DNA from: a virus
Length of the DNA: 64,000 bases
IMG/VR virus record: IMGVR_UViG_3300028197_001024
Location: 1 to 64,000 of that record
Direction: 5' to 3' (one strand)
Below the pieces are notes generated by a model. The model was not told the DNA's origin. It saw nothing but the letters and a program-made list of their open reading frames with translations, and ran no database searches. A program made the position numbers and the translations under genes. Below are positions 4,937-24,391 of this stretch, one piece after another (the first letter of the stretch is position 1; each line of letters opens with the position of its first letter).

Positions 4937-4968
4937 ACTAATGCACACTAATGCTATATAAAAATAAA
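4934..4968 (+). promoter_or_regulatory. Putative middle promoter
   Basis: TAAAC-18 nt-TATAAAAATAAA. Confidence 0.7.
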
Positions 4969-4980
4969 TCAAATATTTAT

Positions 4981-5475
4981 ATGGCAAACGTTGATAACAA
5001 GTGTAAGGATCTCACTGTAAGAGATTACTTTTCGGAAAACGGTTATACTGATTCTAAAAATTCATTAGAAGATCTTTATTCATTACAAGCAAAAACACAA
5101 TCTATGTATTTTGAAAAACAAGGTAAGAAACCTTTTTCAGAATATAATATAGGTGATGTGATAGATTTTTTAATGGTCACTAATCATGCAATCATTGATG
5201 AGTTACATGAAATGGTAGATGCAGTTGGAGGAATTGAAGATGGTGAAGGGAATGCAGCATGGAAACCGTGGAAATCTAAGAATCCTGAAATAAGAAAACA
5301 AAAACTATCTGATTTAACCCCAGGTGATTTAAAAGAATTAAAAATGGAATGGATTGATGTAATGCATTTTGTATTTAATGCAGGGTTGGCAATCGGTGTT
5401 ACTCCTAACGAATTCTATAATCTTTACTTAAGTAAGAACGAGGAAAATTGGAATCGTCAAAAAAACAATTATTAA
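4981..5475 (+). CDS. Dimeric all-alpha dUTPase/dCTPase (T4 gp56-like)
   Basis: DELHE, WKPWK, EWIDVMHF, KNEENWNRQ..Y. The start was moved to 4981 because 4951 lies inside the promoter motif. Confidence 0.85.
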   Translation: MANVDNKCKDLTVRDYFSENGYTDSKNSLEDLYSLQAKTQSMYFEKQGKKPFSEYNIGDVIDFLMVTNHAIIDELHEMVDAVGGIEDGEGNAAWKPWKSKNPEIRKQKLSDLTPGDLKELKMEWIDVMHFVFNAGLAIGVTPNEFYNLYLSKNEENWNRQKNNY

Positions 5476-7972: not shown

Positions 7973-7991
7973 TAATTAAAAACAAAAAGAA

Positions 7992-9767
7992 ATGACAGCA
8001 GATCAAATAGAAAAAGAATTAGGTTGGGAACGTGGTGTTGATTATCCAGAATGGGGGCATACCGATGTTTATTTAAATACAATATCAAGGGGATATTGTT
8101 TACCAGGAGAAACTCCAAAGGATGCTTATTGGAGAGTTGCAACAACCGTAGCAAACAGACTTAAGAAACCAGAAATGGCAGATAAGTTTATGAAGTACAT
8201 TTGGAAAGGTTGGTTAAATTTAGCATCACCTGTATTAAGCAATACTGGAACCGAAAGGGGTTTACCTATAAGTTGTTTTGGTATAGATGTAGCAGATTCA
8301 ATAAATGACATAGGGCAAAAGAACCTAGAGTTAATGTTATTGGCTAAGCACGGCGGCGGCGTCGGTATAGGACATAATCAAATTAGACCTGCCGGTACAG
8401 ATATAACTGATAATGGAACAAGTGATGGTGTAGTACCTTTTATTAAAATTAATGATTCTACTATTCTTGCTACTAATCAAGGCGCAGTAAGAAGAGGTGC
8501 TGCAAGTACTAACTTAAGTATTGATCATGGTGATTTTTGGGAATGGTTAGAAATTAGAGAACCTAAAGGCGATATTAATAGACAATGTTTAAATACAAAC
8601 CAATGTGTGGTTATTGGTGATAAGTTTATGAGAAATGTTTTAGAAGGAGATTCAGAATCTAGAAAAAGGTTTGCAGCAGTACAAAGAAAACGTAGACAAA
8701 CTGGGCAGCCTTATATAATGTATAGAGGAAATGTTAATAAGCAAAATCCTGAAGCATATAAGAGAAACGGTTTAAAAGTTTTTATGACAAACATTTGTTC
8801 TGAGATTGTTTTACATACAGATGAAAATCATTCTTTTGTTTGTTGCTTAAGTTCTCTTAATCTTTCTAAGTATGATGAATGGAAAAATACAAATCTTATT
8901 TATGATGCTACATGGTTTTTAGATGGTGTACTTGAAGAATTTATCCAAAAGGCTAAATATAGAAAAGGCTTTGAAAATTCTGTAAGAACTGCAGAAAAAG
9001 GTAGGGCATTAGGTTTAGGTGTTTTAGGATGGCATACTTATTTACAACAAAGAGGTATCGCATTTGAAGGGTTAGAAGCTCAATATGAAACTCGTAATAT
9101 ATTTTCTCAAATAAAAATAGAAAGTGAAAAGGCAAGCCGAGATCTTGCCGAAGAATACGGAGAACCTCTATGGTGTAGAGATACTGGTTTTAGAAATACT
9201 CACTTAAGAGCAGTCGCACCAACGGTTTCTAATTCAAAATTGGCAGGTGGAATATCTGCAGGAATTGAACCTGTGCCTGCAAATATATGGACTGATCAAT
9301 CTGCTAAAGGAACTTTCATTAGAAAGAATAAACAGTTAGAAGGTTACCTTGATAAAATTGGCCATGATAATAAAAAAGTATGGGATAAAATTATGGCTGA
9401 TGGCGGATCTGTACAAGGTCTTAAATTTTTAGATGATTGGTGTTTCTTAAAGGGGATATTAATGAAATGTAAAGATGTGCCACAATATCAAGAAGGTGTT
9501 CCGTTTAAAGAAGTGTTTAAAACTTTTAAAGAAATTAATCAATTAGAATTAGTAAAACAAGCAGGTGTTAGACAACAATATGTAGACCAGGCAGTATCTT
9601 TAAATCTTGCATTTCCAAAAGAAGCTACTCCAAAATGGATTAACCAAGTTCATTTAGAAGCATGGAAGCAAGGTATTAAAACTTTATACTATATGAGAAC
9701 TGAATCTGTGTTAAGAGGTGATATTGCACAAAAGGCAATGGAAGACTGTGTTAGTTGTGATGGTTAA
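7992..9767 (+). CDS. nrdA: Ribonucleotide reductase class Ia alpha subunit (compact, no ATP cone evident)
   Basis: ISCF, TNICSEI, APTVSNS, KTLYY and a C-terminal CxxC. Confidence 0.97.
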   Translation: MTADQIEKELGWERGVDYPEWGHTDVYLNTISRGYCLPGETPKDAYWRVATTVANRLKKPEMADKFMKYIWKGWLNLASPVLSNTGTERGLPISCFGIDVADSINDIGQKNLELMLLAKHGGGVGIGHNQIRPAGTDITDNGTSDGVVPFIKINDSTILATNQGAVRRGAASTNLSIDHGDFWEWLEIREPKGDINRQCLNTNQCVVIGDKFMRNVLEGDSESRKRFAAVQRKRRQTGQPYIMYRGNVNKQNPEAYKRNGLKVFMTNICSEIVLHTDENHSFVCCLSSLNLSKYDEWKNTNLIYDATWFLDGVLEEFIQKAKYRKGFENSVRTAEKGRALGLGVLGWHTYLQQRGIAFEGLEAQYETRNIFSQIKIESEKASRDLAEEYGEPLWCRDTGFRNTHLRAVAPTVSNSKLAGGISAGIEPVPANIWTDQSAKGTFIRKNKQLEGYLDKIGHDNKKVWDKIMADGGSVQGLKFLDDWCFLKGILMKCKDVPQYQEGVPFKEVFKTFKEINQLELVKQAGVRQQYVDQAVSLNLAFPKEATPKWINQVHLEAWKQGIKTLYYMRTESVLRGDIAQKAMEDCVSCDG

Positions 9768-9776
9768 AAATAAATT

Positions 9777-10523
9777 ATGAAAGATTATACTTATATACTC
9801 GGTCCTTGTAGTATTGAAAACGAGGATACTTTTTTAGAAGTGGCCAAAACATTAGATGGCTATATGGGAGATAAAGATTGGTACTTAAAAGGATCTTTTG
9901 ATAAGGCGAATAGAACTTCTATACATTCTGATAGAGGCCCTGGTTTAGAAGAAGGAATGGAGATTATGAGAACTGTTAAGCATCATTACCCTAACATTAG
10001 AATTGTAACAGATATTCATGAACCTAATCAAGCATTACCTTTATCCGAAGTAGTTGATGTTATCCAAATACCTGCATTCTTATGTCGCCAAACTGACCTT
10101 TTAGTAGAGTGTGCAAAAAACTTTAATGTCATTAATATCAAAAAAGGTCAATGGTTATCTGCTGAGGCAATGGAACATGCAGTTACAAAGATAAAAGAAG
10201 TAGATCCTAATTGTGAAGTATGGGTAACTGAAAGAGGATCTAATTTTGGTTATGACAGACTTATTGTAGATTTTAGAGGAGTGGATGTAATGAAAAAATT
10301 TGCAGATAAAGTTATTTTAGATTGTACTCATTCAACTCAAATGGCTGGAGAAGGTATAACTGGAGGAAGTCGTAAGTTAGCAAAGCAATACGCGTTAGCT
10401 GCAAAGATTTTTGAGTATGATGGTTCATTTATTGAAACCCACCCAGATCCAGATAATGCAATATCTGACTCTGGTAGTCAAGTAGAATTAGATTGGTTAG
10501 TGACTCAAATAAATAATATATGA
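9777..10523 (+). CDS. kdsA: KDO-8-phosphate synthase
   Basis: GPCSIE, SFDKANRTS, QIPAFLCRQTDL, KKGQ, ERG, DCTHS, ETHPDP. Confidence 0.92.
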   Translation: MKDYTYILGPCSIENEDTFLEVAKTLDGYMGDKDWYLKGSFDKANRTSIHSDRGPGLEEGMEIMRTVKHHYPNIRIVTDIHEPNQALPLSEVVDVIQIPAFLCRQTDLLVECAKNFNVINIKKGQWLSAEAMEHAVTKIKEVDPNCEVWVTERGSNFGYDRLIVDFRGVDVMKKFADKVILDCTHSTQMAGEGITGGSRKLAKQYALAAKIFEYDGSFIETHPDPDNAISDSGSQVELDWLVTQINNI

Positions 10524-11569
10524 ATCTAGACTATACTAAGTTACTTAATCGTAATCCTATTTCTACCGATCTTGATAAAATCCAAGAATACATAAAAGGA
10601 AAAAGAATACTTGTTACAGGTGGTGCTGGCTCAATAGGTAGTGAAATTGTACATCAACTTGTAAAATTTGGTGCTTCTACTGTTACTGTTTATGATAATG
10701 CCGAGGCTTCTGTTTTTCATTTAGAACAAGAGATAAGCAAATTATATCCTAAGTCTCATATTAAATATGTAATAGGTGATGTAAGAGATAAGTATAGATT
10801 AGAAGAAGTTTTTGATTCCTTTAAGCCTAGTATAGTTTTTCATGCAGCTGCTTATAAACATGTGCCAATGATGGAGGCTAATCCAGTTGAAGCAATAAAG
10901 ACTAATGTATTAGGTACTATGAATGTCTCAAATATCTCATATATGAATGAGGTAGAAAAATTTGTAATGGTATCAACTGATAAAGCAGTTAATCCAACAA
11001 ACATAATGGGTGCAACTAAAAGAATTGCAGAATTATATACTCAGTTTTTAGAAACAAAATCAGCAACTAAATTTATTGTTACAAGATTTGGTAATGTATT
11101 AGGATCTATAGGCTCTGTAATTCCAACATTTATAAAACAGATTGAAGGAGGAGGACCGGTTAGTGTTACTCATAGAGAAGTTATTAGATATTTTATGACT
11201 ATACCTGAAGCATGCCAATTAGTATTACAGGCAAGTGTACTAGGAGAAGGTGGTGAAATATTATTATTTGATATGGGAGAACCTGTAAGTATTACAGATT
11301 TAGCAAAAAATTTAATAAAACATTTTAATAGTGATGCTAAAATAGAATATGTAGGATTAAGACCAGGTGAAAAATTATATGAAGAACTGTTATGTGATGG
11401 TGAAAATATGGTACCTACCGATGATCATAATATTATGAAGTTAAACCACGAGGCTTATGATTTTAAAACTTTAATACCTAAAATAGAAAAGCTATCAAAA
11501 ATAAGATCAAATGATTTTTATAAAATACTCTTGTTAATGAAAAGTATTGTACCAGAATTTAAAAGATAA
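10520..11569 (+). CDS. UDP-GlcNAc 4,6-dehydratase (CapD/PglF-like catalytic domain)
   Basis: TGGAGSIGSE, HAAAYKHVP, STDKAV, MGATK, RFGNV, GLRPGEKLYEEL. Confidence 0.92.
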   Translation: MNLDYTKLLNRNPISTDLDKIQEYIKGKRILVTGGAGSIGSEIVHQLVKFGASTVTVYDNAEASVFHLEQEISKLYPKSHIKYVIGDVRDKYRLEEVFDSFKPSIVFHAAAYKHVPMMEANPVEAIKTNVLGTMNVSNISYMNEVEKFVMVSTDKAVNPTNIMGATKRIAELYTQFLETKSATKFIVTRFGNVLGSIGSVIPTFIKQIEGGGPVSVTHREVIRYFMTIPEACQLVLQASVLGEGGEILLFDMGEPVSITDLAKNLIKHFNSDAKIEYVGLRPGEKLYEELLCDGENMVPTDDHNIMKLNHEAYDFKTLIPKIEKLSKIRSNDFYKILLLMKSIVPEFKR

Positions 11570-11571
11570 AT

Positions 11572-12642
11572 ATGATAAAAGAATTATTAGTTAATACGTT
11601 ATCACCTGAAAATGGTACTTATTTTCATATAGAAAATTTAAATCAGTGGGCATCTAAAGTAGAACTTAATGGTAAATTAGAAACTATTGAAGTAAATGGT
11701 AAAATAGCTTCTTATGTTGCATACTATGTTAATGATGAGAGGTATTTTATTACAATGGTATGGACGGATCCTATCCATCGAGGAAAGGGTCTTTCAAAAA
11801 AGATAATTAAAAAATTAGTATCATCAACAGATCTTCCAATTGATTTAAGAGTTCATAAAGATAACCCTGCATATTGGTTATATAGGAATCTTAAATTTGA
11901 AGACGTTTCAGTCCATGGTGAAGAAATAGAATTAAGAAGAGTTAAAAAGATAGGAGTTATGCAACCTTATCTTTTTCCTTATGCCGGTTATTTTGGTTTA
12001 ATAAATTCATGCGATAAGATTTTGTTTTATGATGATGTTAATTTTATTATGAGAGGTTTTATTAATAGGCAAAAAATATTGGTAAATGGATCTTCTCATA
12101 CATTTAATATTTGTTTAAGTAAAGCAAGCCACAATAAATTTATTAACGAAATTGATCTTTTAAATGATAAAAGAAAAAATTTAAAGGTACTAAAGACAAT
12201 AGAATCTTCTTATAAAAAGGCTCCTTATTTTAATGATGTTTATCCTATAATTGAAAAGGTCATTAATAGCGATTATAAAAAGTTAGATGAATTGGTAATA
12301 TCTTCTATAGTAAGTGTATGTGATTATTTAGGAATGGATATAAATTGGGAAAGATCCTCGGTTGCAGAAGGTGATACTTGTGGAATGGAAAGAGGTAAGC
12401 GCCTTACTCAAATAGCAAAAAACCAAGGTTTTAATAATTACATAAATGTTGGCCCATCAGAACTTTACACAAAAGAACAATTTAAAAGAGATGGTATAAA
12501 TTTATTTTTTAATAAACATAATGTTAAAGAATATGATCAATTTGAAAAGCCATTTTTATCTCACTTATCATGTATAGATTTTCTCATGTTTAATTCAAAA
12601 AGAAAATGCAAAGAATTAATTTTAAGTTATAATGTAATATGA
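11572..12642 (+). CDS. GNAT-WbqC fusion protein
   Basis: N-terminal HRGKGLS acetyl-CoA motif, followed by WbqC signature MQPYLFPYAGYF...YDDV.F...INR...LS.ID.L. Confidence 0.8.
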   Translation: MIKELLVNTLSPENGTYFHIENLNQWASKVELNGKLETIEVNGKIASYVAYYVNDERYFITMVWTDPIHRGKGLSKKIIKKLVSSTDLPIDLRVHKDNPAYWLYRNLKFEDVSVHGEEIELRRVKKIGVMQPYLFPYAGYFGLINSCDKILFYDDVNFIMRGFINRQKILVNGSSHTFNICLSKASHNKFINEIDLLNDKRKNLKVLKTIESSYKKAPYFNDVYPIIEKVINSDYKKLDELVISSIVSVCDYLGMDINWERSSVAEGDTCGMERGKRLTQIAKNQGFNNYINVGPSELYTKEQFKRDGINLFFNKHNVKEYDQFEKPFLSHLSCIDFLMFNSKRKCKELILSYNVI

Positions 12643-13754
12643 AAAGAATTTACTTATCACCACCTCATATGTCAGGTAAAGAACTTGACTACATAAAAGA
12701 AGCCTTTGATCAAAATTGGATTGCACCGATAGGACCTCATCTTAATTTATTTGAAGAAAAGGTAAAAGAATATACTGGTGCTAAGCACGCAGTAGCTGTT
12801 ACTTCAGGTACTGCCGGTATTCATTTAGGATTAAATGTATTAGGAGTAGGAGAAGGTGACTATGTAATATGTTCTTCTTTAACATTTATAGGAACTGTAA
12901 ATCCAATATTATATTGTGGAGCTGAGCCTATTTTTATAGATTCGGAAGAAGGGTCATGGAATATGGATCCTCTTTTATTAGAAAAGGCAATACTTAATTC
13001 TTCTGCTATAGGTAAAAAACCTAAAGCTATTATACCTGTTCATATTTTTGGTATACCTTGTAATATGGACGCAATAAAAAAATTATCAAATGAATATGAC
13101 ATACCTATTCTTGAAGATGCAGCAGAAAGTCTGGGATCTAAATTTAATAATCAACATACTGGAACCTTTGGCACTATTGGGGTTTATTCTTTTAATGGAA
13201 ATAAATTATTATCTACCTCTGGTGGTGGAGTAATAATAACAGATAATAAAGAAAAGGCTAACAAGATGAGGTTCTTGTCTACACAGGCAAAAGATCCTAT
13301 GCCATATTATCATCACACTGAAATAGGATATAATTATAGAATGAGTAATGTACTTGCTGCTATTGGGGTTGGTCAAATGGAAGTAATAGAAGATAGAATC
13401 AAAAGGACTAGAGAAATGAATGAAACTTATAGAAAGGAATTAGGAAAATATTTTTATTCATTTCAAGAAGAGTTAGAAACAGATAGGTCTAACATGTGGT
13501 TAACATGTGCTATCTTAAATGCTGAAAATAAACCAGATGATTTAATTGCTCATTTAGAAAAAGATAACATTGAAGCAAGAAGAATTTGGAAGCCTATGCA
13601 TGAACAGCCAATTCTAACTAAGTATTTGAAATATATAAATGGAAATAGTTCTTTATTATTTTTACAAGGTATATGTTTACCATCTGGGTCTAATATGACT
13701 GATGTAGATTTAAAAAGAGTAATAAGGTCAATAAAAACATTTTTTAACAAATGA
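12639..13754 (+). CDS. DegT/DnrJ sugar aminotransferase (PglE-like)
   Basis: IYLSPPHM, SGTAGIHL, EDAAESLG, SFNGNK, GYNYRMSN. Confidence 0.93.
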   Translation: MKRIYLSPPHMSGKELDYIKEAFDQNWIAPIGPHLNLFEEKVKEYTGAKHAVAVTSGTAGIHLGLNVLGVGEGDYVICSSLTFIGTVNPILYCGAEPIFIDSEEGSWNMDPLLLEKAILNSSAIGKKPKAIIPVHIFGIPCNMDAIKKLSNEYDIPILEDAAESLGSKFNNQHTGTFGTIGVYSFNGNKLLSTSGGGVIITDNKEKANKMRFLSTQAKDPMPYYHHTEIGYNYRMSNVLAAIGVGQMEVIEDRIKRTREMNETYRKELGKYFYSFQEELETDRSNMWLTCAILNAENKPDDLIAHLEKDNIEARRIWKPMHEQPILTKYLKYINGNSSLLFLQGICLPSGSNMTDVDLKRVIRSIKTFFNK

Positions 13755-14647
13755 TAAATTTTGAAGATTTCAAATTATTAGAGTCTTATATAGGAGAAGA
13801 AAACTTTGAAATTTTACTAGAAAAAAATCTTACTAGTGAAATTAACAAAAAGATTAAATTTGGTGTTGTGATGGCAACTCATAAGATAGCAGATGGTAGC
13901 GCTCAGACAGGCAGACAGAAGTACATGGATACACCTGCTATATTAAAAGATTCTTTAGGTTCAATCAAAAACCAAAAGTATGATAATTATGTAGTTTATT
14001 TAATTGGGGATAAATATGACGGTGACGAAGAAATTAAGACTGTAATGGATAGCGTAATTCCTAAAGGTAAACTTAAATATCACAATCTATCTACACCCGG
14101 TGAAAGAAATAAAGGTTTTACTAAAAAACAATTTAGATATACTGCAGGCTGTGGTGCAGTAAATAAAGGTCTACAAATGGCAAAGAATGATGGTTGTGAT
14201 TATATTGTTAGACTTGATCATGATGATAAATGGACACCTAATCATTTAGAACTTTTAGCAAAAGCATACACACAGTACCCTGAATTAGCATATGTATTTA
14301 CTAGAAGCCGTAAAAAGGTAGATGCAACAAATAGTTCAAAAAAGTTTATGTACCAACCTAGAGATGAAAGACATACTAATTTAATAGAGCCTAATAATCT
14401 AGGATACACTCACGGTGATGTTAGTCATTCTGCAGTTTCATGGAGACCTTCTATGTGTGGAGATCTAAGGTATCGTGATGCTGATGCTCAATGTAATACC
14501 GAACCTAAAATATCTAAAGAAAAAACTAATCCTGCTGACGTTGATATGTTTAATAGAATGATGAAAGCTATAAAGGATAAAGGTCACAAATACATGTACA
14601 TACCAAAACTTACCAGTTTCTATAGAAACAGAAAAGGTAAATTCTAA
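13751..14647 (+). CDS. GT-A (GT2-like) glycosyltransferase
   Basis: AVNKGL...YIVRLDHDD.W.PNHLE. Confidence 0.8.
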   Translation: MINFEDFKLLESYIGEENFEILLEKNLTSEINKKIKFGVVMATHKIADGSAQTGRQKYMDTPAILKDSLGSIKNQKYDNYVVYLIGDKYDGDEEIKTVMDSVIPKGKLKYHNLSTPGERNKGFTKKQFRYTAGCGAVNKGLQMAKNDGCDYIVRLDHDDKWTPNHLELLAKAYTQYPELAYVFTRSRKKVDATNSSKKFMYQPRDERHTNLIEPNNLGYTHGDVSHSAVSWRPSMCGDLRYRDADAQCNTEPKISKEKTNPADVDMFNRMMKAIKDKGHKYMYIPKLTSFYRNRKGKF

Positions 14648-14648
14648 T

Positions 14649-14658
14649 GAATATATAA
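14649..14658 (+). promoter_or_regulatory. Putative late promoter (GAATATATAA class)
   Basis: The same motif precedes the portal, sheath, tube and other structural genes. Confidence 0.6.
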
Positions 14659-14681
14659 AAAAACAATAAAAATTAACTATT

Positions 14682-14858
14682 ATGGAAAAATTTGAAGAAA
14701 TTAAAGCACTTATCGAATCAGTAGGTGAAGACGTAGATAAGTTCTATGCTAAAGGTAACAAAGCAGCTGCTGTGAGAATTAGAAAATCAATGCAAGAAGT
14801 TAAGAATCTTGCACAAGAATTAAGATTACACGTCCAAGAGACTAAGAACAATATGTAA
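14682..14858 (+). CDS. 58-aa Hc1/'histone H1-like' protein, absent from the ORF track
   Basis: MEKFEEIKALIESVGEDVDKFYAKGNKAAAVRIRKSMQEVKNLAQELRLHVQETKNNM, carrying the KF..KGNKAA..R.R motif. It has its own promoter motif and terminator. Confidence 0.85.
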   Translation: MEKFEEIKALIESVGEDVDKFYAKGNKAAAVRIRKSMQEVKNLAQELRLHVQETKNNM

Positions 14859-14876
14859 CCTTACATAACCACCTTT

Positions 14877-14910
14877 AAAAGGGCTATCTTTAATTAGATA
14901 GTCCTTTTTT
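14877..14910 (+). terminator. Intrinsic terminator
   Basis: AAAAGGGCTATCT-ttaatt-AGATAGTCCTTTTTT. Confidence 0.85.
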
Positions 14911-14934
14911 AGTTTTTATTATCCTATTATACTT

Positions 14935-14968
14935 GAAACTTTTTTTAAAACTTCTATATAATAATAAA
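14935..14968 (+). promoter_or_regulatory. Putative middle promoter of the modification operon
   Basis: GAAAC-17 nt-TATAATAATAAA. Confidence 0.7.
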
Positions 14969-14981
14969 TCAGTTAATTTAT

Positions 14982-15533
14982 ATGGAAAGGTGCTTAATAT
15001 TAGATTTTGACGATACTTTAGTTTCAACTATAGATACTCATGCAAATTCTTGGAAACTTGCAATAGAAAGAGTTCTAAATAGAGATATTCCTATAGAAAC
15101 AATAATGTCAGATATTAATTATGGCATGGACGTTCTATTAAAGAAATATCAACTAACCGAAAAGGAATCTAAATTAGCACAAGATTATAAAAGAAAAATA
15201 TTTTCAAAGAATCTCCATAAAACCAAAATAAATCAATTACTTTTATGGGTAATTAAAAATTCTAAATTTGAAAAAGTTATTATAGCTTCTAATTCATCTA
15301 GAGAAAATGTAGATAGAATTATGGCTTACCATAATATAAGCCCTGATTTATTCGATCTTATTGTAACTAGAGATGATGTTAAAAATAAAAAGCCACACTC
15401 AGAAATGGCAGATTTAATTTTTTCAGTATTTCATGGTTATGAACCTAATGATTTTCTTATGGTTGGTGATTCAGAAGTAGATTCAACATTCGCACTTAAA
15501 AACAAAATGAAATGCATACTGGTAAAGTTTTAG
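14982..15533 (+). CDS. HAD-family phosphatase
   Basis: LDFDDTLV, IASNS, KKP, VGDSEVD. Confidence 0.9.
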   Translation: MERCLILDFDDTLVSTIDTHANSWKLAIERVLNRDIPIETIMSDINYGMDVLLKKYQLTEKESKLAQDYKRKIFSKNLHKTKINQLLLWVIKNSKFEKVIIASNSSRENVDRIMAYHNISPDLFDLIVTRDDVKNKKPHSEMADLIFSVFHGYEPNDFLMVGDSEVDSTFALKNKMKCILVKF

Positions 15534-16258
15534 TAGGAAATAGTGGAGATAGAGTATATCTTCAAGATGACAAAGTTATTAAAGAAGCAGGTGTTTATCC
15601 TATAAAGTTTAAACAACAAATGGATTGGTTAGCAAACTGTACCCATCCTAATTTTATAAAAATTAAACCTATTTCAGATACTTCATTTGAAATGAAAAAG
15701 TACCCTACATGGTATGACAAGATTTGTGAACAGCCTTTAATTAAATCAATTGATCAATTGGATGATCTTATTCATATTGCTAATGATTTTGATGGATATG
15801 GTGCTGATGTAGATACAAGATCATATTTAGATAAATTAGAAGGTAGAACCGGGTATAAGTATGAAGGTAATTTAGATGCGGCATCTTCATGGGGTTTTGT
15901 ACACGGAGACTTAACAGTAAGCAATATTCTTTATGATAAAGATTTTATATTTATAGATCCAAGAGGCACAGAAGAACAGAATTATTATGATTATGGAAAA
16001 CTGATGCAATCATTTGTAATGAAATATGAGGCCCATATATACAATGAAAGGAATTCTAAATATCTTAAGTTCTGTAGAGAAGCTGAAAATATAATGTATG
16101 AATGGTATGACGAATATCAATTAAAATTCTTTTTAGCAGTTCACCTATTAGGGGCCGTGCCTTTCTTTGAGCTAAATGAAAGATATGAATTGGCTGGTAT
16201 GTTCCTTAAAAAAGGTCATGAATTATTTGATGAATTAGAAATAAAATATAGTAAATGA
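15512..16258 (+). CDS. APH/choline-kinase-like small-molecule kinase
   Basis: GNSG, HGDLTVSNIL, FIDPRG, YDYGKL. Confidence 0.85.
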   Translation: MHTGKVLVGNSGDRVYLQDDKVIKEAGVYPIKFKQQMDWLANCTHPNFIKIKPISDTSFEMKKYPTWYDKICEQPLIKSIDQLDDLIHIANDFDGYGADVDTRSYLDKLEGRTGYKYEGNLDAASSWGFVHGDLTVSNILYDKDFIFIDPRGTEEQNYYDYGKLMQSFVMKYEAHIYNERNSKYLKFCREAENIMYEWYDEYQLKFFLAVHLLGAVPFFELNERYELAGMFLKKGHELFDELEIKYSK

Positions 16259-16959
16259 AAAGAGTAAGTAAAGCAATTATATTAGCAGCAGGTCGTTCAA
16301 CAAGATATGGCAAAAACAAATTAGTAGATCCTATCTTAGGTAAATCAACTGTTGAATATTGTATTGAATTTTGTATTGAGAATGGAATAGAAGATTGCTA
16401 TATTACAATCAGTAAAGCAGATTTCTTTTTTAAAGATAACGTAAAACTTTCTCATCCTATTATTGAAAAACTAAACAAATACAAAAAGGATATTAATATC
16501 TTTTATGAATTTCAAAAGGATGATGAATATGGACCAGGCGCCGCTATAAAGGTTTGGTCTGGTAAATTTAATGAAGCTTTCTTATGTTTATTTGGAGATA
16601 ATTACTACCAAGGAAATATAGGATTAGAATATCATGATCCAAACAGTACAGTTGTTACTTATAAAGATTATGAAACAAGAGCTAGGAATTTACAATTAGC
16701 ATCTATATTAGAAAATGTTGTTATTGAAAAACCGCATGGAATTGTTTCAGGAAGGTACTTCTGTGGTTATATGATATTTTCAAAAGAAGCATTTAATAAT
16801 CTTGACAGTATTAAAATGTCAAATAGAAATGAATATGAAATTACCCATTTGATTAACTCAATGGATAATTTAAAATTTGAAGAATTAGATATATGTTGGT
16901 ATGACTTAACATATGAAAATGATAAAGAAGTAATAGAAGAATTAATAAAAACATGTTAA
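16255..16959 (+). CDS. Sugar-1-phosphate nucleotidyltransferase (RmlA-like)
   Basis: AIILAAGRSTRY..K, FGDN, IEKP, SNRNEYEIT. Confidence 0.9.
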   Translation: MKRVSKAIILAAGRSTRYGKNKLVDPILGKSTVEYCIEFCIENGIEDCYITISKADFFFKDNVKLSHPIIEKLNKYKKDINIFYEFQKDDEYGPGAAIKVWSGKFNEAFLCLFGDNYYQGNIGLEYHDPNSTVVTYKDYETRARNLQLASILENVVIEKPHGIVSGRYFCGYMIFSKEAFNNLDSIKMSNRNEYEITHLINSMDNLKFEELDICWYDLTYENDKEVIEELIKTC

Positions 16960-18222
16960 ATGGAAAATGTTAAAAAAATAGGTTTCTTTAAACTAGGTAA
17001 AGCGATTAAGTTTAATGAAAACAGTTGGAGTGCAATCGGTGGTGATTGTGAACCTAAACAATTAATCTGTTCAATTGCAAAAAGAAACCCTAATATTGAA
17101 TATTGGTTATTAAGCCCAAATGATTTAGGTAAGTTTAGAGCTAAACAAAAACCTAAAGTAAATTCTTTATTTGGCCCTCCTCCTACAGATGAACCCGTAG
17201 TTCCTAATAATATTAAGGAATTTCATTCAACTATGAAGGAGAGAAAATCTACTGATGAAACTGTTGAAATTATTCAAGGTTTAGATTTAGATTTTATTTT
17301 CTTTTATACTGGTCCAACAAGTACCGTTAATATTCCAGAGTATATTAATAAGAAAGATGGTACTGGTCAAGTTAAGTCATTAGACTTCTTTAAGTATTAT
17401 GCTGCTCCTATTATTAAATCAATGAATGAGTTGGAAAAGAAAGTTCCTATTGTTGGTTTACTTGTTGATAACCGTTATATTCTTGCATGTAAAGACTGGG
17501 GAATTAATAATAGACCAACTTATTACTTAGCACAAAATACATTTACTAAAGAAGAACAATATTTCTGTAACCCACCACTAAGAGATGTTAAAACTATTAC
17601 ATCTACTTATGAATATTCAGGCATTGAAACGGTATTCTTATTAGATAAGAAAAGATATGATACTGATGAATTATTTAAAATGAAAAAGACTGATTCATTT
17701 ATGATGTTACAGAATCAAGGTAAAGGTTCAGGTGGAATGGATCGTTGGGATCCAGTAAAAGAATATATTGTTGATCAAGAAATAGAGACTGATATTTACG
17801 GAAAATGGGATGATGAGATTAAGGAAATGTATCCTAAATGGTTTAAAGGAGAAACGAGAATTGAAACAATGACCGATGAATTACTTGGTACTAAATATAC
17901 ATTCTGTGTACCTATTAAAGAAGGTATGGTAACCTCTAAGTATGCCGAAATGCTACACTATGGTATTATACCATTCTTACACCCGTCTTACGACACCGAC
18001 TTTAATGTCTTTCCAGAAGGTCATTTTATTAGATGTAAATCAGCAGAGGATTTAAAAAAGAAAATTGAATTCTTAAATGCAAACCCAGAGCATTATAAGA
18101 AATTATTTTATAACCTACAAGAAAAGTATCTTAAGGATTCTTATTATACCGGAGAACATGTAGACAACAAGATCTGGGAATCTTATGAACGAGTAACTAA
18201 AACTGAAACTATAAATGTATAA
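16960..18222 (+). CDS. GT-B glycosyltransferase resembling T4 DNA beta-glucosyltransferase
   Basis: KIGFFKLG..., LLVDNRY, and C-terminal VTSKYAEML..IPFL..YDT...SAEDLKKKIEFL parallel T4 BGT as recalled from memory. Confidence 0.65.
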   Translation: MENVKKIGFFKLGKAIKFNENSWSAIGGDCEPKQLICSIAKRNPNIEYWLLSPNDLGKFRAKQKPKVNSLFGPPPTDEPVVPNNIKEFHSTMKERKSTDETVEIIQGLDLDFIFFYTGPTSTVNIPEYINKKDGTGQVKSLDFFKYYAAPIIKSMNELEKKVPIVGLLVDNRYILACKDWGINNRPTYYLAQNTFTKEEQYFCNPPLRDVKTITSTYEYSGIETVFLLDKKRYDTDELFKMKKTDSFMMLQNQGKGSGGMDRWDPVKEYIVDQEIETDIYGKWDDEIKEMYPKWFKGETRIETMTDELLGTKYTFCVPIKEGMVTSKYAEMLHYGIIPFLHPSYDTDFNVFPEGHFIRCKSAEDLKKKIEFLNANPEHYKKLFYNLQEKYLKDSYYTGEHVDNKIWESYERVTKTETINV

Positions 18223-19237
18223 TTCCGAAACAAAAATCCTAGTCACTGGTGGTGCTGGGTTCGTTGGTACAAATTTTATTAACGATTTATTAAATAGAGG
18301 TCATAATCCAAAATGCATTGCGGTTATTGATAACATGGAGCACGGTACTTATATTGCAAAGGTACATGACCAAATTGAAAATTTTCATAAAGTAGATATT
18401 AGAAATCAATATGTAGAAAACATTATCCAAGAGTTTTCACCCGATTATGTTTACCACTTTGCTGGTTTAGTTTCTATTTATGACTGCCATGAAGATCCGT
18501 ATGAAGCCGTAGATAATAATATCTTAGGAAGTATTAATGTAATGAATGGTTGTGTAAAGGCAGATGTAAAAAGAATTATCTTTAGTGAAACTTCTGCAGT
18601 ATATGAAAATTGTGAAATGCCTAAAGAAGGATTTAACGAAAAGCAATCTGATCCTACTACAATTTATTCTACTACTAAAGCATGCCTTGCTCTATTGGCA
18701 GAATCATATCAGAGAACTAAAGGTTTAAATTATACTGCATTAAGATACTTTAATGTTGCAGGGCCTCTACAAGATTATAATAGAACCATCCCACCTGTAT
18801 TTGCTGGGTTTATTTTAAGAATTAAAGGTAATCATAATCCTATAGTGTTTGGTGATTATATGAAAGCAAGAGATTATATTGATGTATCTGATGTTAATGC
18901 ATTTCATATTCTTTGTATGGAAAATGAAAACACTGCAAACCAAACATTTAATTTAGGTACTGGTAAAATGACAAACTTAATGGATCTTAAAAATATGATT
19001 GGTGAGATTATGGGAGTTGGTGAACCTACATTTGATCACTATGATCCTATTGCAGGTGAAGCTCTAAATATTAGAGGAGATATTTCTAAAGCTAAGTCAA
19101 TGGGATGGGAACCTAAAAAAGATATCAGAGATACGATAAAAGAAACGATAGTTTATCTTGAAGAAGAAATTAACCAAGGGACTATTGATCCACTAACATT
19201 TATGGAAAATTTAGAAATCGAAAAAGTAAAAATTTAA
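18215..19237 (+). CDS. NAD-dependent NDP-sugar epimerase/dehydratase
   Basis: TGGAGFVG, YSTTK (YxxxK), LRYFNV.G, RDYIDV.D. Confidence 0.92.
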   Translation: MYNSETKILVTGGAGFVGTNFINDLLNRGHNPKCIAVIDNMEHGTYIAKVHDQIENFHKVDIRNQYVENIIQEFSPDYVYHFAGLVSIYDCHEDPYEAVDNNILGSINVMNGCVKADVKRIIFSETSAVYENCEMPKEGFNEKQSDPTTIYSTTKACLALLAESYQRTKGLNYTALRYFNVAGPLQDYNRTIPPVFAGFILRIKGNHNPIVFGDYMKARDYIDVSDVNAFHILCMENENTANQTFNLGTGKMTNLMDLKNMIGEIMGVGEPTFDHYDPIAGEALNIRGDISKAKSMGWEPKKDIRDTIKETIVYLEEEINQGTIDPLTFMENLEIEKVKI

Positions 19238-19238
19238 T

Positions 19239-20501
19239 ATGGAAAAAGAATTAAAATGGGGTACTATGATTCCGTTAATCGGTGGGAGTGCAATAGGTTG
19301 TAAAAAATCTGCAGGTAATGAGCCAGCATTTCATTTAAGCTATGAAGCAATGGCTGCTAATGAAAGTCATATCGAAAAATATTGGCCAGAAGTACCTATG
19401 TACAGATTAGATCATGAAGATTTAGATATACCTGAGAAAACATTTCAAGAAGTAGATTATGTAAATTCTGTTTGCCCGTGTGCAGGTTTGTCACAGTTAA
19501 ATTCTGCGAAAGGTAGTGCATCATCTAGAGGATCCGATGCGGTTCAAAATCAATGGATGTATAATTCAGCAGAGTATGTTTTGGAGAATGTTAAACCTAA
19601 AGTACTTTGGGGAGAAAATGCACCAGGGCTTTTTACTAAAATGGGAGAAGGTGTTGTTGACAATCTTAAAGCCATCGGTGAGAAATATGGATATAGCTTT
19701 TCATTAATTAAAACTAACACTGAGTTGCATGGAATTCCACAAAGAAGAATAAGAACATTTTATTTCTTTTGGAATACACCAACAGTTCCTATGTTAAGTT
19801 GGAAGTTTAGAGAAAAGAAAAATCTTATTGATTATCTTAATGAAATACCAGAAGATGCTACACAACAGGATATGTTTATGGTTGAAGGCAAAGTCAGTGA
19901 TCATTTTAAACCTTACGAATATGTTTTAGAAAAAGAAGGTTTAACGCATTCTGAATTTGCTGCCAAATTTAAAAAGGGTACTATCGCTCAATATCTAGAA
20001 AAGAATGAATTAATACCTGATTGTATTAAATGGTTAGAAAAACATTATCCTAAAAGAGGGTTTTCAAATAAAAAATCTACAAAGACTTTTATTGATATGC
20101 TAGAACACCAAGAATACAAAACGAGCCAAGGTTTAGGTTACTGGGATGCATCACCGCATTTCTTCCATGATTCTTTTTCTGCCCTTATAGGTAGAAACAT
20201 GTTTAATGGTGTTCATCCTATAGAAAACAGATATCTTAATGTAAGAGAAATGCTTCACTTAATGGGGCTACCTTTAGATTTTGGTATTGAAAGTTCAAGG
20301 CAAGTAAATCATATTGCACAAAATGTACCAGTTACTACTGCAATGGATATGGCAGATGAAGTAAAGAAATTTTGTAATGGAGAAGCTAAGATGACAAATT
20401 ACACCTTCTTAAAACAAGATAATACTAGTCACAAAATAATTGACTCTACTGAAATTGGAGCAGAACCAAAAAAGAAGTATAAAGTAAAAAGTATAATTTA
20501 A
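19239..20501 (+). CDS. C5-cytosine DNA methyltransferase homologue with atypical SAM-binding motifs
   Basis: Motifs IV CPCAGLS, VI GENAPGL, VIII GIPQRRIR and IX RYLNVRE..LMGLP are present. Motif I reads IPLIGG and motif X reads IAQNVP. Confidence 0.85.
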   Translation: MEKELKWGTMIPLIGGSAIGCKKSAGNEPAFHLSYEAMAANESHIEKYWPEVPMYRLDHEDLDIPEKTFQEVDYVNSVCPCAGLSQLNSAKGSASSRGSDAVQNQWMYNSAEYVLENVKPKVLWGENAPGLFTKMGEGVVDNLKAIGEKYGYSFSLIKTNTELHGIPQRRIRTFYFFWNTPTVPMLSWKFREKKNLIDYLNEIPEDATQQDMFMVEGKVSDHFKPYEYVLEKEGLTHSEFAAKFKKGTIAQYLEKNELIPDCIKWLEKHYPKRGFSNKKSTKTFIDMLEHQEYKTSQGLGYWDASPHFFHDSFSALIGRNMFNGVHPIENRYLNVREMLHLMGLPLDFGIESSRQVNHIAQNVPVTTAMDMADEVKKFCNGEAKMTNYTFLKQDNTSHKIIDSTEIGAEPKKKYKVKSII

Positions 20502-20508
20502 ATTAATT

Positions 20509-21525
20509 ATGAAAGATAAAGGATTAGCCATAGGTATATCAAGCCTAGAGTTTACTAATATCTTATGTAGTTATTATCCTAAAGGGATCAAAGAAAAATT
20601 TGATATCTATTTATTTGTGGATGATACTAAAATAGATTTAGAAAAGCTTCAGTGTATTTTTGAAGAGCATGATTTAGATATTTTTAAAAATGCAAAGATT
20701 ATAATTTTAAATGACCTTTATAACCATTACATAGAAAAACATGGTTACGAAGGAAGATCAAAAGAATTTCTATTAAGTCATGGCTGCCTCTTTAAAATAT
20801 TAATGCCTATATACTTAAAGGAAAAATTTGGAGTAAAAAGAACATTAGTATCAGATGATGATGTATTTATTTTAAACGATCTTAGTTATATGTGGGATGA
20901 ATATGAAGAGTTTGGCATAAAAAAGGAAAACTTATTTTACATTAGAAATAAAGATAAGTATGAAGTCATGGATTGTTTTAACGGTATTTTTGAATCTAAT
21001 TTTAGCTTAGATGAAATGAATGCCCTTTCCATAAATGCAGGCAATATAATATATGGAGAAGATCCTAAATTAGAATATTACTTTGAGAGATTTATGAAAC
21101 ACCCATTTATACATCATCAGTATTTTAATTTTACTGGGTATACAAGTTGGACTGTAGAACAAAGATTCCATCACTTTAATGTTCATAGGTATTTAGCAGA
21201 AGGAAGAAAGGTTAAATTTACTGAAAGTAAAGACTTAAGATTAATGCAGAATAGAGACAAGATGATGAAAGCAGGTACACCACCAGACAAATATCTTAAA
21301 GTAGTTGTACCTTCTATAATTCATTATGCAATAGGTGTAAAGAAGCCTCTATGGTTAAATGATTTTTTACCAGGATTAGAATGGAGATACGGTTTTAAGT
21401 ATGAAGCAAAATACGAACTTAAAAATATCTTATACGATAAAAATTGGTCACCGCCTTCGTTTAAAAGTATACAAAAGAATGGATTTATATTAAAAAAGGA
21501 ATTAAAAACAAAATCAATATTTTAA
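20509..21525 (+). CDS. Putative GT-A (GT8-like) glycosyltransferase
   Basis: VSDDDVF (DxD), INAG, EQ, IIHYA..K. Confidence 0.6.
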   Translation: MKDKGLAIGISSLEFTNILCSYYPKGIKEKFDIYLFVDDTKIDLEKLQCIFEEHDLDIFKNAKIIILNDLYNHYIEKHGYEGRSKEFLLSHGCLFKILMPIYLKEKFGVKRTLVSDDDVFILNDLSYMWDEYEEFGIKKENLFYIRNKDKYEVMDCFNGIFESNFSLDEMNALSINAGNIIYGEDPKLEYYFERFMKHPFIHHQYFNFTGYTSWTVEQRFHHFNVHRYLAEGRKVKFTESKDLRLMQNRDKMMKAGTPPDKYLKVVVPSIIHYAIGVKKPLWLNDFLPGLEWRYGFKYEAKYELKNILYDKNWSPPSFKSIQKNGFILKKELKTKSIF

Positions 21526-21551
21526 AAGATAAAATTACAAAAAGAAAATAG

Positions 21552-22349
21552 ATGAAAGATAGAAAAAGTATACCTGTTATTGGAGTTCCTGTAGTAAATG
21601 GAGTTCATTGGGTAAAAAGATTAATGCTATCAGTTGATTACCCTGTAGATAATTTATTTATAATTAATAATAATGGAAGAGGAGAAATTAATGAAGAATT
21701 AGATAAGTTAAAAAATATATCTAATAAATTTATTAAGAATATACACATTACACATTTACCTAGTAATTTAGGAGTCCCGGCAGCTTGGAATTTAATTATT
21801 AAATCATTTTTAATGGAGCCTTATTGGATAATTTCTAACCATGATGTTGCCTTTTCACCTGGTTTATTAGAAGAATTTTCAAATATGGCTCAGGATAAAC
21901 AAATAAGTATGATTCATCCTAGAGCAGGTGTATTTGGTGTAGGTACATATGATTTATTTGCTATAACTGAAATAGGGGTAAAAACGATAGGATTATTTGA
22001 TGAAAATTTATATCCTGCTTATGGAGAAGATACTGATTATATAATGAGAGTTCTAAATTTAAATCCAAAGGTTTGTAGAGGATTGACTTATACTTATTTA
22101 CATGGAAAAGAAATAGCCGATTGTGTCAATTATGAAAATAATGGTCGACAAACGTCTAAAGAAGAACCTCAAATGCAAGAAAAATTAAATAATGTTAATT
22201 ATAAAAATTACAAATATTTAGATGAAAAATGGGGAGAGCATTGGAGAGGTTTAACTCCTTATAAATTTCCTTTTAATAATAAAGAATATTCTAATTCTTA
22301 CACTTCATGGGATATAGATTATATAAGAGAAAAATATTTAGACTTTTAA
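21552..22349 (+). CDS. GT2-like glycosyltransferase
   Basis: IINNN, NLGVPAAWN, NHDV, IGLFDEN.YPAYGEDTDY. Confidence 0.85.
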   Translation: MKDRKSIPVIGVPVVNGVHWVKRLMLSVDYPVDNLFIINNNGRGEINEELDKLKNISNKFIKNIHITHLPSNLGVPAAWNLIIKSFLMEPYWIISNHDVAFSPGLLEEFSNMAQDKQISMIHPRAGVFGVGTYDLFAITEIGVKTIGLFDENLYPAYGEDTDYIMRVLNLNPKVCRGLTYTYLHGKEIADCVNYENNGRQTSKEEPQMQEKLNNVNYKNYKYLDEKWGEHWRGLTPYKFPFNNKEYSNSYTSWDIDYIREKYLDF

Positions 22350-22444: not shown

Positions 22445-23194
22445 ATGGAAACAAAAATTAACAAAATTGACGGTTATGAATTAAGTTCATTCGTTCGCAA
22501 ATTACTTCCAATTGACAAATTCATCTTTATGAAAATCGCAAAAGAGGGTACTGTATCTTCTGTGTATTTCCCTGAGAGGGATGCCGTAAAATTGGTTAAC
22601 ACACCTACCTCAGATATATTTGAGGCTGATATTGAAAACCCAGTAAAGGTAAGCTTTTACAATGGTACTAAAGTTATTGATGCATTAAGCCATTTTAATG
22701 GTGATGTAAAAGGTCGCATTAAATATACTGAATATGATGGAGAATTAATGGCAAGTGATTTTATTTTAGAAAATGAAGATCTTCAGATTAATTTAGCCTG
22801 TACAGATCCTTCGTTATCTTTTATGGAAATGAGTAAAGAAGAAACTGACCGAGCGTTTGATGTGGATTCTAAAATGTTTAGTTTTGATTTACTTACTACT
22901 CATGTAGATAAAATGAAATCATTATTTAATTTAGATAAAGATGAGGATATCTTTACTCTCTATATTGGAGAAAAAGGAATTAACATTAAAGGTACTTCTT
23001 ATGACGCTACGCTATGTCACTCTTATGATTCTGATGTAGAGAAAGGTTCAAAGGTTGTCATATACAAAAAATATGTTAATCTTCTAGATAAAGAAAATTA
23101 TAAGGTAAGTGTATGTGAAAACAAGGTTGTTTTCAAATCATTAGATACAAATACACACCTTACTGTGGCTGTGGCCATTACTGATGAGGATTAA
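22445..23194 (+). CDS. Probable sliding clamp (gp45-like)
   Basis: About 250 aa, acidic, alternating beta/alpha pattern, next to the polymerase. LLDKENYKVSV resembles clamp C-termini. Confidence 0.6.
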   Translation: METKINKIDGYELSSFVRKLLPIDKFIFMKIAKEGTVSSVYFPERDAVKLVNTPTSDIFEADIENPVKVSFYNGTKVIDALSHFNGDVKGRIKYTEYDGELMASDFILENEDLQINLACTDPSLSFMEMSKEETDRAFDVDSKMFSFDLLTTHVDKMKSLFNLDKDEDIFTLYIGEKGINIKGTSYDATLCHSYDSDVEKGSKVVIYKKYVNLLDKENYKVSVCENKVVFKSLDTNTHLTVAVAITDED

Positions 23195-23272: not shown

Positions 23273-24391
23273 ATGACAGAGGAATTACAAAAAATCAACG
23301 AAGAAGCATCAAAATTCTATAATTACGAACAGGCTGTTAAATTAATGCTTAACTCTATTTACGGTGCATTTGGTAATCCTTATTTTTATTTCTTTAATGT
23401 TGATATTGCAGAAACTATTACACTCCAAGGTAAAGATGCAATTCTATATACTGAACAATTAGTTAATAAGTATTTTAAGGAATTCTGGCATAAGGATTTA
23501 CCAGCTCATGCTGCTATGGGTATTACTGTAACTGGTAAAATTGAAAAACCTGTAGGTATTTATATTGATACAGATTCAGTGTATGTTAAATTTGATGAAG
23601 TAATTCAAAAATCAGAAGGCTGGGTTGGTGATGAAAAAGAATTTATACTTAAGCTTTATAAGGTTAGGTTAAATGGTTACATAGAAAAGATTCTACAAAA
23701 ATATGCAGATGATAATAATGCAGAAAACTTTTTATCTTTTGAATTAGAAAGTATTGCTAAAAATGCAATATGGTTGGCAAAGAAAAAGTATATGCAGAAT
23801 ATAGTTTGGAAGGATCCTGATATTCATTACGATGATCTCTCTAAGATTAGTTCAAAAGGATTTGAAATCATTCAGTCATCTACCCCTATTTTTGCAAGAG
23901 AAAAACTAAAAGAACTATTAACTTATATCTTTTCTGTTAGTGAATTAGATATGGGAGCCTTTGCTTCTTTACTTAAAGATGTTAAAAGGCAATTTAGATT
24001 AGCCAATGTTGATCAAATTAGTTTTTCAAGAAAAGTAAATAATTATCAAAAGTATATTGTAAATGATTATGAGCAATTTGAAATTGCATCAAAATGTCCA
24101 ATTGGTGTAAGATCTGCAGGCTATCATAATTACTTACTAAATAATTCAGGCAAGAAAGGTAAATATCAACCACTAGGAAATGGTGAAAAATGTAAAATGT
24201 ATTTTTCTGAAGATAAGTCATGTGATGTGTTTGCTTATGCACCAGGTGATTTTCCTTATGAGTTCGCGCCTAAAATAGATTATGATAGGCAATTTGAAAA
24301 AACAATATTGGATCCTATAAACAGAGTTGTTACTGCTATGGGTTTTAAAGGATTTAACAGAAATCTTATTTACACAACCAGCCTATTTTAA
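23273..24391 (+). CDS. gp43B: Family B DNA polymerase, C-terminal subunit (motifs B and C, thumb)
   Basis: KLMLNSIYGAFG, YIDTDS, AKKKY, KGFEIIQSSTP. Confidence 0.93.
   Translation: MTEELQKINEEASKFYNYEQAVKLMLNSIYGAFGNPYFYFFNVDIAETITLQGKDAILYTEQLVNKYFKEFWHKDLPAHAAMGITVTGKIEKPVGIYIDTDSVYVKFDEVIQKSEGWVGDEKEFILKLYKVRLNGYIEKILQKYADDNNAENFLSFELESIAKNAIWLAKKKYMQNIVWKDPDIHYDDLSKISSKGFEIIQSSTPIFAREKLKELLTYIFSVSELDMGAFASLLKDVKRQFRLANVDQISFSRKVNNYQKYIVNDYEQFEIASKCPIGVRSAGYHNYLLNNSGKKGKYQPLGNGEKCKMYFSEDKSCDVFAYAPGDFPYEFAPKIDYDRQFEKTILDPINRVVTAMGFKGFNRNLIYTTSLF

Follow-up and report, generated by a model that had tools for sequence, protein, structure and literature searches.

A 64-kb stretch of viral DNA (positions 1 to 64,000 of the IMG/VR record IMGVR_UViG_3300028197_001024, here called the window) carries at 16960-18222 an open reading frame (ORF) whose 420-aa product, P0001, is a homologue of the beta-glucosyltransferase (BGT) of phage T4. 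P0001 has the fold of BGT, the two proteins have conserved residues in common, and the P0001 gene family is linked to a dCMP hydroxymethylase of the T4 gp42 type. We consider it likely that P0001 glycosylates 5-hydroxymethylcytosine (5hmC) in phage DNA.

The window belongs to a 74.5-kb viral fragment that is, by estimate, about 27% complete. All of its large ORFs lie on the + strand, and the GC content is about 30%. It encodes a T4-type replication and virion set comprising UvsX, a gp41-like helicase, a gp46-like nuclease, portal, prohead protease, major capsid protein and tail sheath. The nearest relatives of the major capsid protein come from huge uncultured phages (57%), and its identity to the proteins of Tenacibaculum phage PTm1, Sphingomonas phage PAU and the Lak phages is ~31-40%. 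Based on this gene set and these capsid relatives, the source virus is an uncultured marine jumbo myovirus. Closely related copies of P0001 are common in ocean metagenomes, on contigs of up to ~219 kb, and an exhaustive HMMER search yielded relatives in 379 clusters at 50% identity. Among 324 IMG/VR loci with a relative of P0001, 80 were examined. Two sets are used below: a close-lineage set of 39 loci, and a distant set of 43, made up of 41 of the 80 examined loci (29-36% identity) and two cultured phages. Cultured carriers of the family include Pseudoalteromonas phage vB_Psh_XG4 (XG4) and the Enterococcus phages Planchet and 9183; literature searches turned up no report of DNA modification in Enterococcus phages carrying the family. 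For sequence comparisons, we built a family alignment and profile, A1, from 72 full-length P0001 homologues.

The similarity to BGT is remote, as the single P0001 sequence retrieved neither BGT nor any other match from the PDB (phmmer). It matched no family in PHROGs or NCBIfam, and in Pfam only Glyco_trans_1_2 below threshold. With the A1 profile, T4 BGT was the top match among 177,635 PDB sequences (E 1.4e-6 and 2.5e-6), followed by GT10 fucosyltransferases with E values of 0.005-0.015. Using hhalign, A1 aligned with the product of T4 b-gt over 196 columns (probability 92.6%, E 4.6e-7), compared with a probability of 0.65% for the T4 alpha-glucosyltransferase (AGT), which the A1 profile did not detect in the PDB either. 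The GT4 enzymes BshA, MshA, PimA and PglH were not found in the PDB by the profile at E <=10, and the GT4 Pfam models Glycos_transf_1 and Glyco_trans_4 matched neither P0001 nor any of the 72 members when these were scanned. These alignments reproduce segment matches proposed in the first-pass annotation: hmmsearch paired LFTDIRL of BGT, proposed there as the counterpart of LLVDNRY, with the xxDxRY block of the family, and both hmmsearch and hhalign paired ITLRVWE...FDT...ELIDRVNEL with VTSKYAE...YDT...DLKKKIEFL. The curated Pfam family T4-Gluco-transf (PF09198) was not among the hmmscan matches of P0001 or the 72 members, and the P0001 family is therefore separate from it. We class P0001 as a BGT-like (GT63-like) DNA glycosyltransferase of predicted activity, from a separate and mostly uncultured family.

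The AlphaFold (AF2) model of P0001 is of high confidence (pLDDT 93.4, pTM 0.90), apart from stretches such as the Pro-rich residues 61-80, a low-confidence example of the loops that P0001 has in addition to those of BGT. In a Foldseek search with the whole model, ranks 1-4 were all occupied by T4 BGT (E 1.4e-10 to 6e-10), with BshA behind them (3e-8). VIA-align gave Z 22.0-22.5 for BGT, with a root-mean-square deviation (rmsd) of 3.7 over 317 residues, followed by PglH (6eji, Z 20.3), BshA (about 19.5-19.8) and T4 AGT (18.2). GT-B enzymes all resemble one another in fold, which keeps this margin modest; we therefore modelled the acceptor-side N-domain separately (residues 1-232, pLDDT 74) and compared it by VIA-align, without a Foldseek prefilter, with 48,161 PDB representatives. 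BGT ranked first of all these chains (Z 8.6, rmsd 3.0, 141 residues) and was the sole chain at Z >=8, the runner-up reaching 6.6. Foldseek with the N-domain model alone returned nothing at E <=0.001 and placed BGT at rank 42. In a library of viral structures, the second match was a protein named DNA beta-glucosyltransferase (E 6e-26). The proposed N-terminal strand match is also seen here, as the structural alignments pair model residue 5 onward with BGT residue 1 onward. The view of P0001 as a divergent BGT-like enzyme thus holds in the profile, hhalign, Foldseek and VIA-align comparisons, the last for the whole model as well as the N-domain. A best match to GT-B families acting on lipopolysaccharide or protein, which would have spoken for a different enzyme, was not seen: BGT came first in the profile, hhalign and whole-model Foldseek comparisons and in both VIA-align runs.

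Seven residues are invariant in the 72 sequences (P44, G118, D170, G281, W283, K327 and G398), and D29 and E31 are invariant too in the N-domain set. In the sequence alignment, the catalytic Asp100 of BGT appears to correspond to the invariant D170 of P0001, and BGT R102 to R172, which is conserved in >=90% of the sequences. The pairing of Asp100 was taken from the HMM alignment, as adding T4 BGT to A1 with MAFFT --add misplaced this region. Among the BGT ligands of the UDP phosphate and ribose, R195 aligns with R262, R269 with the invariant K327, and E272 with E330.

A gp42-type dCMP hydroxymethylase is encoded past the end of the window, at positions 70728-71636 of the contig (L001:1330-2238), preceded by guanylate-kinase-like and dTMP-kinase-like genes. 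Among proteins of solved structure, this thymidylate-synthase homologue scores best against T4 dCMP hydroxymethylase (E 8.8e-23) and MilA, while true thymidylate synthases reach 4e-11. In ThyA numbering, it carries the catalytic Cys, L143D, a retained D169 and N177D, the latter conferring dCMP specificity. According to Lee et al. (PMC13326640), 5-hydroxymethyl-dCMP synthases keep D169, whereas 5-hydroxy-dCMP synthases have D169N. By these criteria, the D/C/D/D signature marks the contig enzyme as a 5-hydroxymethyl-dCMP synthase and not as a 5-hydroxy-dCMP synthase. Longer relatives of the contig encode a canonical ThyA (~299 bits) plus a divergent hydroxymethylase (~86 bits), resembling T4 with td and gene 42.

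Across the distant loci, the hydroxymethylase lies upstream of the glycosyltransferase (GT) gene in 21 of the 22 loci whose upstream flank extends to >=5 kb (median distance between the genes, 3.15 kb), and in every case the enzyme beside the GT has the D/C/D/D signature. Genes are usually arranged as PolB - (MazG-like NTPase) - hydroxymethylase - dCMP deaminase - fused nucleotidyltransferase-kinase - small HAD - GT - C5-methyltransferase (C5-MTase)-like - exonuclease - UvsX - helicase, and the succession PolB - hydroxymethylase - GT - UvsX - helicase mirrors T4 43 - 42 - b-gt - uvsX - 41. XG4 and Planchet have the same neighbourhood, including the hydroxymethylase. This linkage is the strongest evidence for 5hmC in DNA as the acceptor. 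The first-pass annotation had argued from the BGT similarity that the cluster targets DNA, and the case is now stronger, given a gp42-type hydroxymethylase on the contig and its tight linkage to the GT in distant loci. Distant loci encode, along with the hydroxymethylase, a dCMP deaminase and, as a candidate dCTPase, a MazG/PRA-PH-type NTP pyrophosphatase (L067:7000-7551; L047:4694-5239, 7670-8134); together, the three enzymes form a complete T4-like set for rewiring the nucleotide pool.

In the window, three genes precede the BGT-like GT in a tight operon (14982-22349) with the order HAD, APH-fold kinase, nucleotidyltransferase, BGT-like GT, GalE-like epimerase, C5-MTase-like gene, GT8-like and GT2. 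The ATG-started ORF of the BGT-like GT spans exactly 16960-18222, begins one base past the stop of the nucleotidyltransferase gene and shares its last 8 nt with the epimerase ORF. The features of this region are as follows:

14877-14908, + strand: terminator-like hairpin (13-pair stem, then a T-run) at the close of the upstream amino-sugar/GT2 block.
14933-14962, + strand: promoter-like site ahead of the operon, TTGAAA-18-TATAAT, 11/12 matches, the best of the region.
14982-15533, + strand: HAD-superfamily phosphatase/phosphomutase of the sugar-activation module (Pfam HAD_2, E 1.9e-21).
15512-16258, + strand: APH-fold sugar kinase, split counterpart of the kinase half of AfhE-like proteins (weak Pfam APH; phrog_21938, E 4e-11).
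16255-16959, + strand: sugar-1-phosphate nucleotidyltransferase (Pfam NTP_transf_3 and NTP_transferase; NCBIfam GlmU/RmlA/AglF-type, E 1e-17 to 1e-10).
16960-18222, + strand: BGT-like GT-B glycosyltransferase P0001, predicted from profile, structure and residues to act in 5hmC-DNA glycosylation.
18215-19237, + strand: GalE-like NDP-hexose 4-epimerase (Pfam Epimerase, E 1.8e-46).
19239-20501, + strand: C5-cytosine methyltransferase-like protein (Pfam DNA_methylase, E 2.5e-19; M.HhaI, E 8e-4).
20509-21525, + strand: GT-A (GT8-like) glycosyltransferase, candidate for adding a second sugar (placed beside GT8, Glyco_transf_8, clusters in a language-model atlas, score 0.96).
21552-22349, + strand: GT2-family glycosyltransferase (Pfam Glycos_transf_2, E 1.1e-5; phrog_29879 'galactosyl transferase', E 5.5e-27).

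The hairpin falls within 14648-14981, the one intergenic gap of any size in this region. The promoter-like site is a consensus match only, and such sites are overall not enriched over shuffled sequences. For the HAD ORF, which occurs in 33 of the 39 close loci, NCBIfam returned a beta-phosphoglucomutase-family hydrolase (E 1.6e-13), and the epimerase has UDP-glucose 4-epimerase 4zrm as its best PDB relative (E 4e-40) and matches NCBIfam galE (E 9e-40). The ORF at 20509-21525 (338 aa), present only in close relatives (25 of 39), has no Pfam or NCBIfam match and a DDD motif in its translation. It was also considered as a TET enzyme and rejected, since it resembles a GT8-type GT-A.

The donor is probably a phage-made NDP-sugar, because a module of HAD, kinase and nucleotidyltransferase precedes the GT. 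Directly upstream of the GT in 29 of the 43 distant loci stands a fused nucleotidyltransferase-kinase of ~500 aa, which has 22-24% identity over 84% of its length to genes of Dhakavirus and Klebsiella T-even (arabinosylating) phages. Between this gene and the GT lies a small HAD, confirmed by Pfam in one checked locus and represented by an ORF of similar size in a second. The separate kinase of the window matches positions 376-446 of the fused nucleotidyltransferase-kinase HMM (E 1.7e-11), and the window's nucleotidyltransferase has no score against this AfhE-like HMM. Kinase, nucleotidyltransferase and HAD also constitute the UDP-arabinose route of RB69, DLP3 and HY126 (PMC13326640). By analogy with UDP-arabinose and with the heptose donor of a published metavirome contig (contig 53), the logic of the module would be sugar phosphate to 1,x-bisphosphate to sugar-1-phosphate to NDP-sugar.

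An epimerase, where present in distant loci, is directly upstream of the GT in seven of eight. With an NDP-sugar module of its own and a coupled epimerase, P0001 probably does not use plain UDP-glucose. The earlier proposal of a different donor is therefore plausible, as the sugar module precedes the GT family-wide and the epimerase is translationally coupled. A second sugar block lies upstream (9777-14647) and encodes a Kdo-8-phosphate synthase (KdsA), a PseB-like 4,6-dehydratase, a GNAT+WbqC fusion, a LegC/PseC-like aminotransferase and a GT2 (13751). A 182-kb relative encodes a KdsD-like arabinose-5-phosphate isomerase beside the CMP-Kdo synthetase KdsB (L091:1387-2759). With KdsA in the window and KdsD-like and KdsB proteins in relatives, CMP-Kdo would be one candidate donor for the complex glycan considered below. 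Another would be a di-N-acyl amino sugar made by the products of the PseB-like, LegC-like and GNAT-WbqC genes. SIS and SIS_2 isomerases were absent from the three complete distant genomes and the two isolates.

A near-constant companion of the GT is the C5-MTase-like gene, which follows it in 41 of the 43 distant loci, in 34 of them at a distance of <=18 nt. Its catalytic Cys and the motifs ENA(P), QxRxR and QNxP are invariant in 24 sequences, motif I reads PLIGG, and many members end in an acidic-aromatic tail of the LEEFF type. Tet_JBP (PF12851) was absent from the 74-kb record, from four relatives (completeness of at most 65%) and from 23 distant records, three of them complete (>=90%). A co-folding prediction of the GT with the C5-MTase-like protein gave no answer (score 0.00) and speaks neither for nor against binding. 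It is possible, though unlikely, that the GT and the catalytically intact C5-MTase-like protein form a two-enzyme step outside the described pathways, in phages with a gp42-type hydroxymethylase and no TET enzyme, the product here possibly being a complex hydroxymethylcytosine glycan assembled by up to four transferases from phage-made donors.

These elements can be combined into a tentative route for glycosylation of 5hmC by P0001. The gp42-type hydroxymethylase would make 5-hydroxymethyl-dCMP, the kinases encoded beside it would take this to the triphosphate, and the modified base would enter DNA at replication. After replication, duplex DNA would be held between the two Rossmann domains of P0001, in their cleft, and P0001 would flip the 5hmC base out of the helix, with Asp170 (the counterpart of BGT Asp100) as the putative general base. 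R262, K327 and E330 would hold the NDP-sugar, and the sugar would be moved onto the hydroxymethyl oxygen, presumably with inversion. The donor would be supplied by the upstream HAD, kinase and nucleotidyltransferase and/or by the coupled 4-epimerase, and the downstream GT8-like and GT2 enzymes may lengthen the glycan. Net charge and pI are scattered among family members (pI 5.1-9.6) and thus uninformative on DNA binding.

P0001 might instead take part in DNA hypermodification at a step remote from the base, extending a sugar already in place, or might act on a base produced by the C5-MTase-like enzyme. The presence of three further glycosyltransferases in the window (GT2 at 13751, GT8-like at 20509 and GT2 at 21552) would fit the former, and the C5-MTase-like gene beside the GT in almost all distant loci hints at a coupled step. 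However, none of these three transferases has a homologue beside the BGT-like gene in the distant loci, where other GT families were not searched for, and the two loci annotated in detail have just the nucleotidyltransferase-kinase, the small HAD, the BGT-like GT and the C5-MTase-like gene. Moreover, the nearest solved relative of both P0001 domains acts directly on 5hmC in DNA, and a Tet/JBP dioxygenase that would convert 5-methylcytosine to 5hmC is absent from 23 related records, including three complete genomes. We regard a role of this kind as unlikely. Genes for Kdo-8-phosphate synthase and for PseB-like, LegC/PseC-like and GNAT-WbqC proteins typify surface-glycan pathways, which raises the question of whether P0001 serves a jumbo-phage sugar island and glycosylates a virion protein, a host envelope glycan or a small molecule; generic GT4 enzymes nearly equal BGT in the fold searches, and Pfam offers generic GT-B models only. 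Yet the surface-glycan-type genes are limited to the close lineage and occur in none of the 43 distant loci, where the only PseB-like matches were weak ones to the epimerase ORF. The GT, by contrast, keeps company with genes for dCMP hydroxymethylase, dCMP deaminase, a MazG-like NTPase, polymerase, UvsX and helicase. The profile match to BGT is also specific, T4 AGT and the GT4 families being undetected by sequence. A target other than DNA is accordingly improbable.

A further question is whether the acceptor could be 5-hydroxycytosine, glycosylated through an ether-linked sugar as in RB69 and DLP3, instead of 5hmC. The module of kinase, nucleotidyltransferase and HAD resembles the AfhE/AfhF route to UDP-arabinose (PMC13326640), and its fused distant form matches the Dhakavirus and Klebsiella T-even genes mentioned above. 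We nevertheless consider this very improbable: all 30 aligned thymidylate-synthase homologues (25 distant ones beside the GT and five of the phage's own lineage) have Asp at the position of ThyA D169, where D169N would be diagnostic; the contig homologue matches the HY126 flavin-type enzyme with E 8e-10, against 8.8e-23 for T4 gp42; and the HY126 arabinosyltransferase 9iqz is structurally distant from P0001 (whole-model VIA-align, Z 16.4, rank 40). Several observations weigh against direct glycosylation of 5hmC by P0001. In this phage lineage, the hydroxymethylase gene does not adjoin the GT but is located ~53 kb away. PF09198 found no match at E <=10 in the whole 74-kb record, and family members match the generic GT-B model PF13524 (44 of 72) and the GT10 model PF00852 (21 of 72) instead. 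GT4 enzymes follow in VIA-align at Z 18.8-20.3, ~2 Z units behind BGT, and R191 of BGT aligns with a Gly and is unconserved in the P0001 family. Finally, a simple T4-type pathway offers nothing for the C5-MTase-like partner to do and leaves it unexplained, because 5hmC would be made before replication and without a TET enzyme.

Two genes of the window, 16 kb apart, together encode the family-B DNA polymerase, one its exonuclease/N-terminal part (5498-6904) and the other its polymerase C-terminal part (23273-24391). Between them lie ribonucleotide reductase, the sugar genes, the operon with the BGT-like GT and an ORF at 22445-23194; in distant relatives, the halves are adjacent or fused. Just upstream of the N-terminal half, an Fpg/Nei-family DNA glycosylase with a match to a NEIL1-type DNA-binding domain is encoded at 4100-4936 (Pfam Neil1-DNA_bind, E 1e-6). 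At 3014-3586, the window also encodes a sigma-70-family factor with regions 2 and 4, ECF-like. The ORF at 4951-5475 (174 aa) has a weak dUTPase_2 match and homologues near the GT in two distant loci, and may be the dCTPase/dUTPase of the lineage. Its assignment as a gp56-like dCTPase was unsupported, with the weak dUTPase_2 match alone and no PDB relative.

Sugar-coated cytosines shield phage DNA from restriction enzymes and CRISPR nucleases, and are themselves targets for type IV restriction systems and antiviral DNA glycosylases. Protection from nucleases would be the presumed purpose of the modification predicted here. The 379 clusters and 324 IMG/VR loci, the marine abundance and the cultured carriers suggest that T4-style hydroxymethylcytosine glycosylation with home-made donors is widespread beyond the T-even coliphages, and enzymes of the P0001 family could serve for labelling 5hmC with new sugars.

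Compared with T4 BGT (CAZy GT63; 1bgt, 1j39, 1qkj, 1nzd), P0001 has the same GT-B fold, with BGT as its best profile and structure match; the catalytic Asp lines up, as do three of the four nucleotide-binding residues (R, K and E in P0001), and the gene sits among replication genes with a gp42-type hydroxymethylase. It differs in an identity of only ~12%, in its length (420 aa vs 351 in BGT) and extra loops, in the missing PF09198 match and the unconserved R191, in being preceded by its own NDP-sugar module with a coupled epimerase, and in being followed by a C5-MTase-like gene, which T4 lacks. The RB69, DLP3 and HY126 systems (PMC13326640) likewise use a pre-replicative thymidylate-synthase homologue with a dNMP kinase, a route of kinase, nucleotidyltransferase and HAD to the NDP-sugar, and GT-B DNA transferases encoded near the polymerase gene. 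In contrast to these, the thymidylate-synthase homologue here keeps D169 instead of D169N, and the arabinosyltransferases of those phages resemble GT4 enzymes, not BGT (PMC13326640).

Three GT-B enzymes of 419-429 aa from metaviromes, GT66, GT94 and GT53, were described by Pyle, Lund, O'Toole and Saleh in 2023 (bioRxiv 10.1101/2023.12.21.572611). GT66 and GT94 had T4 BGT as top PDB match and were classed as GT63, whereas GT53, with BshA on top, was classed as GT4. In the same study, heptose was transferred to 5hmC by GT53, acting with a HAD-APH enzyme and a cytidylyltransferase, and Kdo by GT94, and GT66 showed no activity; among GT-B contigs found by HMM mining, thymidylate synthases were associated with ~28% and 5mYOX with ~10%. 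Compared by published description, these enzymes resemble P0001 in size, in the BshA, MshA and PglH that follow in the match lists, and in the neighbouring HAD-APH kinase, nucleotidyltransferase and C5-methyltransferase genes. P0001 therefore belongs to an already described kind of system. The clusters of Pyle et al. (subclass III) obtain 5hmC after replication through a C5-MTase and 5mYOX/TET, whereas a gp42-type hydroxymethylase was found here, and Tet_JBP was absent from the contig, the four relatives and the 23 distant records searched. Glycosylation of hydroxymethylcytosine in DNA with phage-made donors is thus already known, and the unusual parts of the present system are its C5-MTase-like partner and the possible complex glycan.

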